Source of the DNA: a bacterium
Lineage (GTDB): Bacteria; UBA8248; JACPRG01; G963555815
Direction of reading: 5' to 3'
Assembly (NCBI GenBank): GCA_965218795.1
Contig: OZ244653.1
Span: 2,528,001 to 2,592,000 of the forward strand
DNA: 64,000 nt
The notes under the pieces were generated by a model. The model did no database searches, was not told the origin of the DNA, and was given only the letters and a program-made list of their open reading frames with translations. The position numbers were made by a program, and so were the translations under genes. Below are positions 58,043 to 63,652 of the stretch, piece after piece (the stretch's first letter is position 1; each line of letters starts with the position of its first letter).

Positions 58043-59239
58043 ATGCTCAAGGCAACCAAGGATATCGCGCTGGCGACCACAATCACCGGCTCCCTGCCCC
58101 GCCCATCCTGGTACACGGCCAACCTCGCCGGGAGACCCTTTCGACAGGCCATGGCCGAAAGCGTTTTCCGCGAACAATACAACGATGCGGTTTCCTGCTT
58201 CATTCGGGATCAGGAACGCGCGGGGCTCGACATCCTCACGGACGGCGACTGCCGATTCGATACCGACGTCGGGGGACGGTCATGGGTGACCTACCCCGCC
58301 CAGCGGATCAACGGCATGACGGGCTACGACCACACCACCCGGCACACGAATTGGGGAGGGACGGCGCCGGGCGAGCTTCTCTATGAGGTCCTCGAGGCCA
58401 GGATGCTCCCCATCGTGACCGAAAAGGTGAGCCGGGGACCGCTGGAGTTCGGCCCGGTTTGGAAAGCGGCCCAGAAGATGACCCGGAAGCCCGTCAAGTT
58501 CGGAACGATCACGGCCGAATGCCTCGAATCCACCTGCGGCAACGAGTACTACGAAGACCGGCGGGAGCTTGTCATGGACTTGGCGGCGTTGCTCAATGCG
58601 GAGGCCCTGGACCTGGCCAGGGCGGGCTGCCCCATCGTTCAGATGGAGGAACCTTGGGTCCACCGTCTCCAGCACCATGAAGATGATCGGGGAATGGGGA
58701 TCGATTTCTACGTTGACGCCTTCAACCGGACGGTACAGGGCCTCGGCGAGCTGACAGAGGTCTGGTGCCACACCTGTTGGGGAAGCCCGGCCGCCCAGCG
58801 CTTTTACGATGAAGGAGAGCAGAGATACGCCCGGTCTCTGGAAAAGCTGAACCGGCTTCAGGCTGATGTGATCACCGTGGAGGCCGCCAATTCGCCCGAA
58901 TGGGAGTTCGAGGCCATCGGGAAGACGATCGCCGAGAAGAAAATCGCAATCGGCGTGGTGGACCACCGAACCCTTCAAATCGAAACCCCTGAACAAATCG
59001 CCCGCATGGTTCGCGAGGCTTTGAAACACATCCCCCCCGAACGCCTGATCCTTTCCTCCAACTGCGGTTTCGGCCGGGAGGGAATGAGCCGGCGCCACGC
59101 CTTCTACAAAATGGCAGCCATTGTCCGCGGCGGGAATATCGTCCGGCGGGAGCTCGGGATTTCCGAGGCCGACTGTCTGGCCGAAGACCCCCGCTTCCTC
59201 CTCGTGGACAAGGATGAGCGCCCGTATCCGCCGCAATGA
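58043..59239 (+). CDS. Cobalamin-independent methionine synthase II (MetE C-terminal-like) family protein, copy A
   Basis: TGSLPRP, QERAGLDILTDG, Q.EEP, zinc ligands HTCWG and SNCGFG. Confidence 0.9.
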   Translation: MLKATKDIALATTITGSLPRPSWYTANLAGRPFRQAMAESVFREQYNDAVSCFIRDQERAGLDILTDGDCRFDTDVGGRSWVTYPAQRINGMTGYDHTTRHTNWGGTAPGELLYEVLEARMLPIVTEKVSRGPLEFGPVWKAAQKMTRKPVKFGTITAECLESTCGNEYYEDRRELVMDLAALLNAEALDLARAGCPIVQMEEPWVHRLQHHEDDRGMGIDFYVDAFNRTVQGLGELTEVWCHTCWGSPAAQRFYDEGEQRYARSLEKLNRLQADVITVEAANSPEWEFEAIGKTIAEKKIAIGVVDHRTLQIETPEQIARMVREALKHIPPERLILSSNCGFGREGMSRRHAFYKMAAIVRGGNIVRRELGISEADCLAEDPRFLLVDKDERPYPPQ

Positions 59240-59290: not shown

Positions 59291-60469
59291 TTGATCACAG
59301 CGACCCAAGACATCCCCCTGGCCACCACGATTACGGGTTCCCTTCCCCGCCCTTCCTGGTTTACCGCCCGATTGGGGGAAAGGCCATTCCGGCTGGCTAT
59401 GGCCGAGAGCGTCTTCCGCGAGCAGTACGGCGACGCGGTGGCCTGCTACCTGAGCGATCAAGAGCGGGCGGGACTGGACATCCTGACGGACGGAGACTGC
59501 CGGTTCGATACGGACGTGGCCGGAGGCGGCTGGGCGCTGTACCCGGCCCGGCGCATCCAGGGAATGACGGGCTACGTCCATACGCCGGAGCAGACGAATC
59601 AGGGCGGATCGAAACCCGGTGACCTGGTGTACGAGGTTCTCGAGGCCCGCATGCCGCCGATGGCGACGAGCAAACTCGGCCGCGGACCGTTGGAGTACGG
59701 TCCCATCTGGAAGACCGCGCAAAAAATGACGCGCCGGCCCGTCAAATTTGGAACCATTACGGCGGAATGCCTCTCGTCCCATTGCGGCAACGAGTTCTAC
59801 AAAGACCGGCAGGAGATGATCATGGACATGGCGGCCGTCCTGAACGAAGAGCTTCTGGATCTGGCCCAAGCCGGCTGCCCCGTCATCCAGATGGAAGAGC
59901 CCGTGGTCCACCGCCTGGACTACCATGAGGGCGATCAGAGGGCGGATTTCCATATCCAGGCGTTCAATCGTACCGTTCAGGGGTTGAGGGAACGGACGGA
60001 GGTCTGGTGCCACACCTGCTGGGGGAGCCCGGCATCCCAGCGCTTCTACGGCGAGGGCGATCAAACCTATGCCCGCTCCCTTGAAACGCTGAACGAGCTC
60101 GACACGGACGCGCTCACCTTCGAGTTTGCCAGCTCGCCCGAGTGGGAGTTCGAGGCCATCGGGAGCGTGATCCAGGAAAAGAAAATCGCCATCGGCGTCG
60201 TGAGCCACCGGACGCTTCAGGTGGAATCACCGGAAGAGGTGGCCCGAATGGTCCGCGAGGCGCTGAAGCACATCCCGCCCGAGCGCTTGATCCTGTCATC
60301 CGATTGCGGGTTCGGCCGCGAGGGGGTGAGCCGCCGCCATGCCTTTTACAAAATGGCGGCCATCGTCCGGGGGGCCAACATCGTCCGCAGGGAGCTGGGC
60401 CTGCCCGAGGCCGTCTGCCTGGCCGAGGATTCAAAGTTTACGCTGGTGGAAAGCGGACCGGATCCGTAG
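59291..60469 (+). CDS. Cobalamin-independent methionine synthase II family protein, copy B
   Basis: Colinear paralog of copy A with HTCWG and SDCGFG; TTG start after GGGAG. Confidence 0.9.
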   Translation: MITATQDIPLATTITGSLPRPSWFTARLGERPFRLAMAESVFREQYGDAVACYLSDQERAGLDILTDGDCRFDTDVAGGGWALYPARRIQGMTGYVHTPEQTNQGGSKPGDLVYEVLEARMPPMATSKLGRGPLEYGPIWKTAQKMTRRPVKFGTITAECLSSHCGNEFYKDRQEMIMDMAAVLNEELLDLAQAGCPVIQMEEPVVHRLDYHEGDQRADFHIQAFNRTVQGLRERTEVWCHTCWGSPASQRFYGEGDQTYARSLETLNELDTDALTFEFASSPEWEFEAIGSVIQEKKIAIGVVSHRTLQVESPEEVARMVREALKHIPPERLILSSDCGFGREGVSRRHAFYKMAAIVRGANIVRRELGLPEAVCLAEDSKFTLVESGPDP

Positions 60470-60560: not shown

Positions 60561-61576
60561 TTAATTGCTGGTCGGCAGGAACTGGTTGGTGTACAGATCC
60601 TTCACCGCCACGGCGCATGGGTTCTTCCCCAGACCGCTCATGATCGCGTTCCGCGTGAACTTCATTTTCTTCTCGGTCATGTAGCCCAGCCCGTACTGGA
60701 TGGTCGTCTCCGTCAGCATGGAATTGTTGGCGGTCTGCCACTTGAGCATTTCCGACCGCTTCTTCGACTGCGGATTGTGCTTGAGAAGGATGTCCACGGC
60801 TTCCCCGGGGTTCTTGGAGGTCCAGGCCAGGCTCTTGAGGGAGGCGTGAATGAACCGACGGACTTGATCCGGGTTGCTCTGGATGCGTGTATCCAGGGTG
60901 TTCAACGCGAGGGAGTAAAGATTCATCCCCCAGTCGGAGAAAACAAGCCGGTGAATCTTTTTCCCGATCTTTTCGGCGCCCTCCACGATGTTGTGATCGA
61001 CGCTGGTGAAGGTGGCGATGGAATCCACCTTTCCCGCGTACATCGACGGGGCCATGGCCGAAGGAGGCATGGCCACCCATTTCACCTTGGCCATATCCAC
61101 TCCGTTCACTTTCGCAAAGAGAGGAAAGACCGTCCGCAGCGAAGACCAGACAGGAGCGCCGACCGTGCGGCCCTCGAGGTCTTTGGGTTTCATGATGCCG
61201 GAACCCGCCAGGGTGTAGACGACATTGAGGTCTTTCGCCAGAAAGACACCGATAGCCCGGATGCCCACGTTTTGCGCGCGCGCCTTGATGATTTCCCCCA
61301 TGTCCGCCAAACCGAATTCAGCCGCCTTGCCCACGACCGCTTTCACGGCTTTGGCCGACCCCGCTCCCTTGATAAAGGTCAGGTCCAGGCCGTTTTCCTT
61401 GTAGAAGCCCTTCTCCTTTCCGGCGAACCAGGCCGATTGCTGTCCGTCTGCCACCCAATTCAGGATGAAGCGGACCCCCTCTCGGCAGAGGCCGTGCCGG
61501 TCCATAGGATGAGTCCCAAAGACAGCATCGCCAGCGTCCCAAGACTCCGATAGGAGAGATTTCGGATCGGGTTCAT
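60561..61576 (-). pseudogene. NMT1/THI5 (SsuA-like) ABC substrate-binding protein, frameshifted just after the signal peptide
   Basis: MNPIRNLS...TGTASAE, a shift in the 5-G run (61475-61479), then VRFILNW...KGFYKENGL...GS, I..PKDL.G. Confidence 0.85.
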
Positions 61577-61624
61577 GTCGTCTATATGGACGCCTCCCGG
61601 TTTGCGAGGGACGATTTGGTGTTT

Positions 61625-61800
61625 CCGGACAACAGGTTGCAGTTCTATATGCGGCCTGTTTGTGCAGGGCTTGTGCCTGCTGGCCCCGATGGAATCTGCC
61701 GACCCGCGCCTCATTCTCCTTGAGGGCTTTTCGCCCCTGACGACATGCAGGCTTGGCGGATCGCGGTCTGACCTGTTGGCCATCACACCTTGTCGTACCT
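61625..61800 (-). ncRNA. Predicted bridge RNA / seekRNA of the IS1111-group element (boundaries approximate)
   Basis: Two stem-closed internal loops whose unpaired segments match the target flanks (CATGTCGTC; TCAAGGAG) and the circle junction (ATTCCAT; CATATAGAA). Confidence 0.8.
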
Positions 61801-61857
61801 TGCGCAACCTTTCAGCGTGCCACCTCCTTGGTTGGTGGTTCCTGTCGCCAACCGCGC

Positions 61858-62671
61858 TTACGCGGCCTGACTGACAAAATTTGGTTGGTACGCCCGGACA
61901 TGGGCCAGCAAGGCCCAGATCGTGCGCGCCGTCTTGTTCGCCAGCGCAACAGCGACGACGTTCGCCGGCCGGCGCTCGGCCAGTCGCGCTCAGCACCCCG
62001 ACACCGGGGATCTCCGCGATCCGCTGGCTGGCCGCATTGTCCCGATGCCACAGCTTGAGCCGCCGCTCGATATCGCCAATCTCCTCGTCGAGCCGGGCCA
62101 CACGCGCCCACTGCTCACGCAAGGTCTCCACGACCATCGCCGGCAATCGTTCCGAGACCCGCTCAAGGGCCACGGCCATACCCCCCCCTCATACCGGCCC
62201 GGCCTTGCAGCATGACTTCGCCGTATTCGGCCAACAGACCGCGCAGGCCGTTGAATCTGGGCGGTGCGGAACTTCACCAGCTGCTGGCGCATGCGATGCA
62301 GCGCCAGGACCGCCTGTTGCTCCTCGCTCTTGAGCGCAACCGTCTTGATGCCGGGCTGCTGCACCGCCGTCCAGAGCGCGCGTGCGTCATGTACATCGCT
62401 CTTGTTGCCGCCCACGAACGGTCCTGACCATCTTTGCCGGCAGAAGCCTGACCGCGTGGCCCAGCTCCTGCAGCCGGCGCGACCAGTGCTGCGAGCCGCC
62501 GCACGCCTCCATGCCAATCAGGCACGGCGCGCGATTGGCGAAGTGCTCCAGGAACTTCGCCCGTGTCAGCCTCAGACCCATGATCTCGCCCGTCTCCATG
62601 TCGACCCAGTACAGTTGAAACACCCTTTTCGCCGTATCCACGCCCACGACCGTTCTGCCAGTCTTCATCAT
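61858..62671 (-). pseudogene. IS110/IS1111 transposase with frameshifts and an internal deletion
   Basis: VGVDTAK, GMEACG, NKSDVHDA, IPGVG and VALANK.AR..WALL. Frameshifts at about 62421, 62251 and 62181; segment between GVLSAT and LAERRP missing at about 61981. Confidence 0.92.
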
Positions 62672-62890
62672 TGGACCCTCCGGTTGGCTTGGGAAGAGTT
62701 TATTCTTCCCCCTTGGGCACTGTGATGCCGTCGGCCCCCGTGGGTCCACTTTAGCCCTCTCGCCGTCCAACATCAGGGAGTGGGAGGCGTCCATTCCATT
62801 CTCCCTAAGAAGAATCCTCATTGTCGCTCCAGCCGCATGTGCGGGAACCTGCATTTCTGATCGTTGCTTCGTCATCAGGCCGGTCGGCCC

Positions 62891-63652
62891 TTACGTCATC
62901 ACGGCGCCGCCGTCGACGACAACGAGCTGACCGGTCATGAAGTCGCTGGCTGAAGAAGCCAGATAGAGCATCGTCCCCTGAACGTCACGGGGGAACTGGT
63001 CCCGCCTGAGACATCGCGTCGTTTGCGACCGCCCGGTCGCGTTTTCCAGAAACGGCTTCTCCATCTCCAGGACTTTCTCGCTCAGCGTAAACCCGGGGGC
63101 CAGGGTGTTCACAGTGATTCCAAAATCGCCCGTCTCCCGGGCCAGTGCGCGGGTCATCCCGTGGACGGCTCCTTTGGACGTCACATACTGAAGAAATCCG
63201 GAAATCCCCCTTTCCGCGGTCGGCGAGCCGATGTTGATAATCTTCCCGCTCCCCTGCTCCTTCATATGGGGGAAGACCGCCCGGCAAAGCAGAAAGATAC
63301 CCTTGACGTTGACGGCCATGACGCGGTCCCACTCATCGGCGGAGATTTCCCAAAACGGCTTGAAGGCGAGGTCCGCCCAGAGGGCCGCGTTGTTGACCAG
63401 GATGTCTACGCCCCCAAAGGCGCCGACGACCTCTTCCACCAGCCGCTGCACGGATCCCTCGTCCGACACGTCGATGTGAAATTCGGTGACTTGGCCGCCT
63501 TCGGCCTGGATCTCCCGCGCCGCAGGGGCGGCATCAATCAAATCCGCCATCGCCACCCGCGCGCCTTCGCCCGCCAGCGTCCTCGCATATTCCTTCCCGA
63601 TCCCGCGTCCCGCGCCCGTGACCAGGATCCGCGTTCCATCCAATTGACCCAT
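62891..63652 (-). CDS. SDR family oxidoreductase
   Basis: TGAGRGIG, NNA, YVTSK, NTLAPG and DGG; clear paralog of 19385-20143. Confidence 0.93.
   Translation of the reverse strand: MGQLDGTRILVTGAGRGIGKEYARTLAGEGARVAMADLIDAAPAAREIQAEGGQVTEFHIDVSDEGSVQRLVEEVVGAFGGVDILVNNAALWADLAFKPFWEISADEWDRVMAVNVKGIFLLCRAVFPHMKEQGSGKIINIGSPTAERGISGFLQYVTSKGAVHGMTRALARETGDFGITVNTLAPGFTLSEKVLEMEKPFLENATGRSQTTRCLRRDQFPRDVQGTMLYLASSASDFMTGQLVVVDGGAVMT

Follow-up and report, generated by a model that had tools for sequence, protein, structure and literature searches.

A decayed IS1111-group insertion sequence between the Shine-Dalgarno sequence and start codon of a binding-protein gene, and a clade of relatives whose predicted guide RNAs spell translation-initiation regions

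The window analysed here is a stretch of 64,000 nucleotides from a bacterium of the GTDB lineage UBA8248 (assembly GCA_965218795.1, contig OZ244653.1, positions 2,528,001 to 2,592,000), and its subject is a 1,217-bp insertion sequence (IS) of the IS1111 group (IS110 family) at window positions 61583-62799, wedged between the Shine-Dalgarno (SD) sequence GGGAG and the start codon ATG (61576-61574) of a gene for an NMT1-type binding protein. Judged from sequence and held at a probability of about 0.8, the preferred reading is that this IS is a decayed copy of an RNA-guided element that was placed between SD and start codon by its own guide RNA, and that its clade homes to the translation-initiation regions of arbitrary genes. 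The anatomy of the element, the covariation of guides with flanks and the placement at real gene starts, co-oriented with the gene, were all observed directly.

The minus strand carries the IS, the upstream short-chain dehydrogenase/reductase (SDR) gene and the NMT1-type gene alike, and the orientation of the IS is therefore that of its target gene. The target, an NMT1/THI5-like periplasmic binding-protein gene (60561..61576; PF09084, E 4e-40), has been parted from its SD, which is now stranded upstream of the IS (62801..62805; anti-SD duplex energy -7.1 kcal/mol). Read along the minus strand, the left junction passes from ...CTTAGGGAG into AATGGAATGGACGCCTCCC and the right junction from ...GGGAGGCGTCCATAT into AGACGACATGAAC. 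The triplet AGA stands at both junctions, so that an element written as 61584-62800 with an AG core and one written as 61583-62799 with a GA core give the same site, AGGGAG-ACGAC-ATG, and the exact crossover is ambiguous by 1-2 nucleotides (nt). The AG core was the version of an earlier, sequence-only reading of this DNA; its assertion that removal of the IS together with one core restores that site holds for either way of writing the ends. The GA core fits the relatives, whose core is AA or GA, and the ends given here were placed by motif anchors, by comparison with those relatives. The left GA (62800..62801) shares its G with the final base of the host GGGAG, the right GA lies at 61581..61582, and the reconstructed uninterrupted allele is AGGGAGACGACATG.

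On comparison with homologues, the ATG at 61576-61574 is the true start of the NMT1-type gene: the signal-peptide-like N-terminus that begins there aligns with the N-termini of two homologues of 67% and 78% identity, both of which have an unbroken SD-spacer-ATG. The occupied junctions recur in contigs of public runs from different studies (both junctions in X1, the left only in X12), which makes an assembly artefact unlikely.

The defining features of the IS1111 group, as given in the parts of Siddiquee et al. 2024 (PMC11187229) drawn on here, include subterminal repeats of 7-17 bp slightly inside each end and a longer non-coding region downstream of tnp. Both are found in the window IS, where a perfect pair of 13-nt inverted repeats lies 5 nt in from the left and 3 nt from the right of the family-based ends (left, ATGGACGCCTCCC, 62782..62794, including an ATG that shares the reading frame of the transposase; right, GGGAGGCGTCCAT, 61586..61598), and where the non-coding ends measure 275 nt on the right and 128 nt on the left. 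Between them lies a transposase remnant with a DEDD/RuvC-like N-terminal part (61858..62671). A copy of 1,433 bp elsewhere in the genome, hereafter copy 2 (G000:C1:784841-786273), is 99% identical to the window IS, and its N-terminal open reading frame (ORF) matches PF01548 (DEDD, RuvC-like) at 43.2 bits against a cut-off of 29, the window fragment reaching 23.2 bits, below that cut-off. The C-terminal domain PF02371, deleted in the window copy, is matched by copy 2 at 74.6 bits, with the motif GLVPRHSGTG in translation, and by an intact relative (L009) at 79 bits; the same relative matches NCBIfam NF033542, "IS110 family RNA-guided transposase", at 313.5 bits against a cut-off of 140. On these sequence features the window element is assigned to the IS1111 group of the IS110 family, and junctions, 13-nt repeats and domain matches together bear out the sequence-only claim of such an element inserted between SD and ATG.

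The 3' non-coding region (61584..61857) is predicted, from an alignment and consensus fold of 35 relatives, to encode a seekRNA or bridge RNA, its conserved scaffold carrying two variable stretches that flank a small hairpin. These stretches, the target-loop strands, read CATGTCGTC, the complement of GACGACATG, and AAGGAGAATG, and together they spell SD, spacer and start codon. Strand X (CATGTCGTCA, 61738..61747) is the complement of the right target flank, start codon included, while strand Y (61712..61721, direct repeat D4) corresponds to the left target flank with its SD, the core and the first left-end bases, being identical to AAGGAGA followed by the first bases of the left end. The target so encoded, AAGGAGACGACATG, consists of a consensus SD, a 5-nt spacer and ATG; what the sequence-only reading had supposed of the guides, namely that GGAG and a start codon are written in them, is thus borne out by the X and Y strands of the window IS and of its relatives. 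A donor guide, CATATAGAA (61643..61651), equals the right-end tip, the core and the first left-end base, in other words the circle junction. In the consensus fold X and Y face each other in an internal loop that is bounded by helices, and the donor stretch falls in a second domain; compensatory changes are seen in 12 of the 35 predicted pairs. The segment order, X lying 5' of Y with an overlap at the GA core, is that described for IS1111 seekRNAs, in which the top-strand match stands 5' of the bottom-strand match and the two overlap in the target (PMC11187229). No Rfam family matched the 3' non-coding region, the sole match being a sub-threshold snoRNA in the spacer between the SDR gene and the IS.

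Full copies in this genome number only two. Copy 2 lies between ...CATGGAG and the AAACGAT-ATG of a Pyr_redox_2 (pyridine-nucleotide-disulphide oxidoreductase) gene, which is again a site just upstream of a start codon. Measured against the 14-nt target, the window site has 1 mismatch and the site of copy 2 has 2-3, the best genomic site being the occupied one; no unoccupied site with at most 1 mismatch was present in the genome, and sites with 2 mismatches numbered 47, against 25.6 expected from base composition.

The placement of relatives was followed across bacteria. Among 101 related genomes scanned, all those with the element, 11 in number, belonged to a different family of the same class, of which 42 genomes were covered; none of the 6 genomes of its own family had it. 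A protein-guided scan of genome contigs confirmed 529 relatives; both ends could be placed in 52 of the 80 loci examined, which with the two copies of this genome brought the sites to 54 (50 unique) in 32 assemblies that span several phyla by record titles. An ATG was found 0-10 nt past the core at 45 of the 50 unique sites, compared with 13.8% of 19,200 positions drawn at random from these loci, and the first ATG fell 4-6 nt past the core at 40. At 31 sites that ATG opened an ORF of at least 60 amino acids (control 5.5%), an SD-like left flank was present at 37 (control 20%), and ATG, ORF and SD-like flank coincided at 27, where the control positions gave 1.15% (n=19,200). A Pfam family was recognised on 23 of 38 downstream ORFs, several matches starting within the first ORF residues. 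The families are unrelated to one another, with thiolase, PhaC, ZnuA, ExbD, SbmA/BacA, ABC ATPase, TldD/PmbA and other transposases among them. The insertion was always co-oriented with the target gene.

Guide and flank vary together. The reverse complement of X matched the element's own right flank over at least 6 exact nt at 30 of 50 sites, as against 2.5% of 2,374 mismatched element pairs, and Y agreed with its own left flank at no fewer than 7 of 9 nt at 33 sites, as against 11% of 2,362 mismatched pairs. Among 35 distinct guides, X position 2 is A in 32 and position 3 is T in 30, and Y positions -6 to -1 are almost all purines, with the consensus GGRGAA. What is kept across this widespread clade is therefore GGRGAA on one loop strand and A-U opposite the start codon, and it is mainly the spacer part that varies. 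With a constant guide part that spells SD and start codon and a spacer that is free to change, many unrelated genes would be hit at their start.

Elements in Escherichia coli annotated as "IS110 family" or "ISEc66 family" share about 65% DNA identity with copy 2. Six E. coli contexts, a non-random set from the top of the match list of which one is annotated as ISEc66 family, all carry GGAGA or AGGAA to the left of the element, and an ATG follows 6-8 nt past its right end. In four of them this ATG is the start codon called by the Prokaryotic Genome Annotation Pipeline (vapB, a DUF5406 gene, mtnK and a transposase pseudogene). For the other two the annotation puts the start elsewhere: tnpC is begun within the IS, and a DUF932 pseudogene is flagged as short of its N-terminus. 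The former case (L207), in which the start of an IS66 tnpC lies inside the IS, looks like a start call misled by the insertion. An ISBcen4-family transposase on a Burkholderia plasmid has 64.7% protein identity to the transposase of one relative; no clear guide-flank match was found in the one ISBcen4-family copy looked at on such a plasmid. The supplement of PMC11187229, so far as seen, lists ISBcen4 but holds none of the three end or guide motifs looked for, and no published statement was found on the target of ISEc66- or ISBcen4-family elements.

Other copies and relatives do, accordingly, sit just upstream of start codons, as copy 2, 45 of the 50 unique sites and the six E. coli contexts show. 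The same evidence bears on the notion of a coincidence, whereby a specific 14-nt target merely happens to fall at two gene starts. The presence of only two full copies in this genome could be cited in its favour; it is already contradicted by the site placement, the guide constants, the unrelated target genes and the E. coli contexts, the SD/ATG placement recurring in 30 of 35 distinct guide types drawn from 32 assemblies, and it is hardly credible.

Several observations weigh against RNA-guided placement at translation-initiation regions as a property of the whole clade, or blur the evidence at the window locus itself. Five of the 35 guide types (L055, L071, L073, L077 and L108) occupy sites without an ATG. 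In two assemblies, one of which holds seven of the eight copies concerned (L041-L047, L066), the element lies repeatedly in the same repeated sequence. Many of the sites come from related elements and are phylogenetically non-independent, and 28 of the 80 loci, L072 included, were dropped where a contig ended, anchors had diverged or the copy was truncated. Most guides begin X with an A, which makes no pairing with the G of ATG and leaves part of the ATG preference unexplained by Watson-Crick pairing. The empty allele was not found either: no contig of four public runs joins across the IS, and the closest target-gene homologues (67%, in genome G003, and 78%, on a metagenome contig) have other neighbours and spacers and offer no empty allele, the reconstructed-site sequence itself not having been searched. 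With the empty allele unrecovered, the exact crossover point is an inferred one.

Two side observations concern these unusual sites. The flanks of L041-L047 and L066 read ...CCCTCGCCCCCTTTGGGG on the left and AGAGGGATGCGGAGGCTTGGCGAG on the right, which suggests a target that is a repeat or another mobile element. The right flank of L039 is the seekRNA scaffold of another copy, beginning ...AAATGAGGCG; the insertion may have occurred next to or into the Y loop of another element, itself resembling an SD-ATG site, or the arrangement may stem from a rearrangement.

Whether placement at gene starts benefits the element should also be given consideration. It is conceivable that the association with SD and ATG is a mechanical by-product, the purine run by the core and the A-U by the closing helix being fixed by the working of recombinase and RNA, so that gene starts merely resemble the constraint and the element gains nothing from them. 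Consistent with this, the constant guide positions adjoin the core and the closing helix. An N-terminally extended transposase read from the left-repeat ATG proved a weak lead: 14 of 38 distinct left ends, that of the window IS included, have a frame that runs open from this ATG into tnp, yet the extension is not conserved as protein, similar DNA being read in different frames. Set against a by-product, three of the five non-ATG guide types have an X that lacks A-T, and these elements (L071, L077, L108) insert at non-ATG sites and persist, which indicates that the A-U guide positions are not strictly required; in addition, the orientation is always that of the target gene, and the left-end ATG falls 6-7 nt past the host SD in every element. 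In the window, the host GGGAG now stands 6 nt 5' of the ATG within the left inverted repeat. The by-product account is possible, though doubtful.

A benefit to the element can be framed only tentatively, as an extension of RNA-guided homing to gene starts. The loop constants of the clade, in spelling SD plus start codon, may let an element land, co-oriented, at the start of almost any gene. The host ATG would thereby be swapped for the left-repeat ATG at a spacing of 6-7 nt, host promoter and ribosome-binding site (RBS) would drive both transposase and guide RNA, making mobility dependent on host expression, and the target would stay off until precise excision. That the host SD feeds translation from the left-repeat ATG is speculative.

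The steps envisaged for the window locus itself are as follows. Site-specific recombination by a DEDD recombinase would have put the element between SD and start codon of the NMT1-type gene, the site being picked by an RNA from the 3' non-coding region of which one loop strand complements GACGACATG, that is spacer plus ATG, and the other equals SD plus core. RNA-guided recombination at a 2-nt core, a circular intermediate and the assembly of a promoter at its junction are carried over from what is described for the family in the portions of PMC11187229 and PMC11208160 consulted. The insertion takes away the SD of the target gene and would lower its translation, given that the nearest SD-like sequence, the GGGAGG of the right repeat, lies 16 nt from the ATG; this sequence was weighed as a new SD for the target gene and judged too far away. 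The integrated element would rely on read-through from a host promoter. Such read-through fits the outcome of a simple scan of the integrated state, in which no sigma-70-like promoter and no terminator-like site was found in 61400-63000.

After excision, the transposase gene may instead be driven by a promoter formed at the circle junction. Joining the two ends of the window IS in silico gives TCGCAA-N17-TAGAAT, as had been predicted, with the -35 element TCGCAA at 61602..61607 (minus strand) and a -10 TAGAAT that arises only when 61584-61583, the core and 62799-62798 are brought together. In the relatives the corresponding form is TTGNNN-N16/17-TA(A/G)AAT, both hexamers reaching at least 4/6 in 24 of 36 distinct end sets, and the -10, as TA(A/G)AAT or CA(A/G)AAT, is split across the junction in all 36. 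In 34 end sets the homologous -35 hexamer starts with TTG, and in two of those it is exactly TTGCAA; the suggestion that the C of TCGCAA had decayed from TTGCAA agrees with this. The junction promoter is hence predicted to be a feature of the clade, of which the window -35 would be a degenerate outlier. A circle-junction promoter has been established for ISEc11, and circle formation is stated for IS1111 and IS110 family members alike, in the relevant passages of PMC11187229. No joint linking the two IS ends was present in contigs of the four runs, in which rare forms would stay invisible. In the four metagenome runs the contig depth summed over the IS (61567-62862) was tens to hundreds of times the flank depth, so that relatives of this IS family are abundant in those communities.

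The transposase gene of the window copy bears several lesions. A G8 run at 62181-62188 shifts its frame by +1 and is common to the window copy and copy 2 (L002, about 2111-2118), though absent from relative L009; private 1-nt insertions, relative to copy 2, occur at 62254 and 62423. At about 61982/61983 some 218 bp are missing, and with them the Transposase_20 domain that carries the motif GL-P----TG. Ends and RNA gene have stayed intact; the window copy is non-autonomous and most likely immobile. The sharing of the G8 run by two sites could mean that the element moved while frameshifted, by slippage or with help in trans, or that gene conversion spread the run. A whole-genome search with the transposase of one relative yielded no intact homologue; all that it met were the two broken copies, some remnants and a single distant copy interrupted by stops. 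Remnants of related elements lie at G000:C1:5086463-5086639 (L005), which retains the seekRNA scaffold with a different guide pair, at C1:2653797-2654087 (L004/L006) and at C1:1322233-1322268 (L007), the last being a 36-bp right-end tip followed by ...TGTCATG.

The target gene is frameshifted as well, at a G5 run (61475-61479, minus strand) some 33 codons in, so that signal peptide and mature part lie in different frames. The run has the same length in contigs of two studies (X1 and X12), for which reason the frameshift is probably real, and the gene is probably a pseudogene.

The sequence-only reading had gone further and proposed that the element may act as a reversible gene switch, in which case the window copy would be actively turning the binding-protein gene off and on by precise excision and re-insertion. 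Intact ends, inverted repeats and seekRNA gene speak for such a switch, as does the circle formation reported for IS1111 and IS110 family members (PMC11187229, in part). Against it stand the loss of the transposase C-terminal domain and the three frameshifts in the window copy, the frameshift in copy 2, the want of an intact homologue of the one transposase searched, the lack of any contig across the empty site in the four runs, the frameshift of the target gene in contigs of two studies and the degenerate -35 at the junction. An active switch at this locus is accordingly quite unlikely, and the empty allele that had been suggested as a check turned up neither in public-run contigs of the four runs nor in the closest homologous loci.

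The upstream SDR gene (62891..63652; adh_short E 6e-56), co-oriented with the target gene, is followed by a spacer of 90 nt that leads to CTTAGGGAG at the left junction. The claim that the IS splits an operon is left unproven: the stretch from the SDR gene to the IS holds no terminator-like site, yet a neighbour other than the SDR gene lies upstream of the target gene in its two closest homologous loci. This bacterial family shows a huge expansion of NMT1-type binding proteins, with 73, 64, 39 and 17 matches in four genomes, and just 1 match in a small 2.1-Mb genome. Downstream, two tandem paralogous plus-strand ORFs of about 395 amino acids (58043-59239 and 59291-60469) adjoin the binding-protein gene region.

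RNA-guided recombinases of the IS110 and IS1111 type are under development as genome-editing tools, and their natural targets are usually described as element-specific, such as repetitive extragenic palindromic (REP) elements, attC sites and transposon ends. The clade considered here appears instead to share a generic functional target, the translation-initiation region, by keeping one part of the guide constant (SD, AU) and leaving another part, the spacer, free. Such an arrangement would account mechanistically for the RBS/ATG preference that is cited in the case of IS900 and IS901, would explain how an element with a specific target still finds sites in many hosts, and predicts that individual genes are silenced in a polar and potentially reversible way. 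Where annotation shows an "IS110 family transposase" 6-8 nt before a start codon, the gene that begins there would be one severed from its SD, and gene callers may mis-set its start, as with tnpC.

IS900 and IS901 are IS110-type elements that are not known to have long subterminal repeats, and their transposase gene runs opposite to the target gene. For both, which reside in Mycobacterium avium and belong to the IS110 family, a targeting of RBS and ATG is cited (PMC2942039, PMC8141618, each seen in part), and a "host expression dependent" hed ORF is mentioned (PMC8141618). As with IS900, the window IS, copy 2, most of the relatives and the inspected E. coli copies are inserted between RBS and start codon. 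Unlike the IS900 group, the window IS does not have the IS110-type architecture, in which long subterminal repeats are lacking and the non-coding region precedes tnp, possessing instead 13-nt subterminal repeats and a downstream non-coding region; its transposase gene is co-oriented with the target gene, and its guide RNA can be read directly. The window element thus resembles IS900 in site choice but is no member of that group. IS492, from the same family, is the model of a reversible switch by precise excision, and the window locus differs from it in showing no sign of excision in contigs of the four runs. The ISEc66- and ISBcen4-family elements, as named in RefSeq, are annotated relatives whose inverted repeats and guides differ in sequence, and the E. 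coli copies inspected, like the window IS, sit upstream of start codons (6-8 nt).

With ISEc11, ISPa11 and ISKpn4, IS1111-family elements with a 3' seekRNA, the window IS shares the DEDD transposase, the subterminal repeats, the long non-coding region downstream of tnp, the RNA segment order with its overlap in the target, and the predicted circle-junction promoter; it departs from what is described of them in that its guide holds SD and start codon constant and lets the spacer vary (PMC11187229, sections seen). The bridge RNA of IS621 (Durrant et al. 2024, PMC11208160, likewise in part) is comparable in being bispecific, one internal loop binding the target and another loop the donor, and in that donor and target share a core dinucleotide; it lies in the left end and directs the element to REP elements, whereas the predicted RNA of the window IS lies in the right end with its donor guide in the second domain. 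No statement that IS1111-type elements target RBS was found in the open-access literature, and the target-logo figures of PMC11187229, a source seen in part, may already show the pattern. Insertion between RBS and ATG has its precedents in IS900 and IS901, and what is added here is an IS1111-type clade in which a guide for SD and start codon can be read from the element itself.

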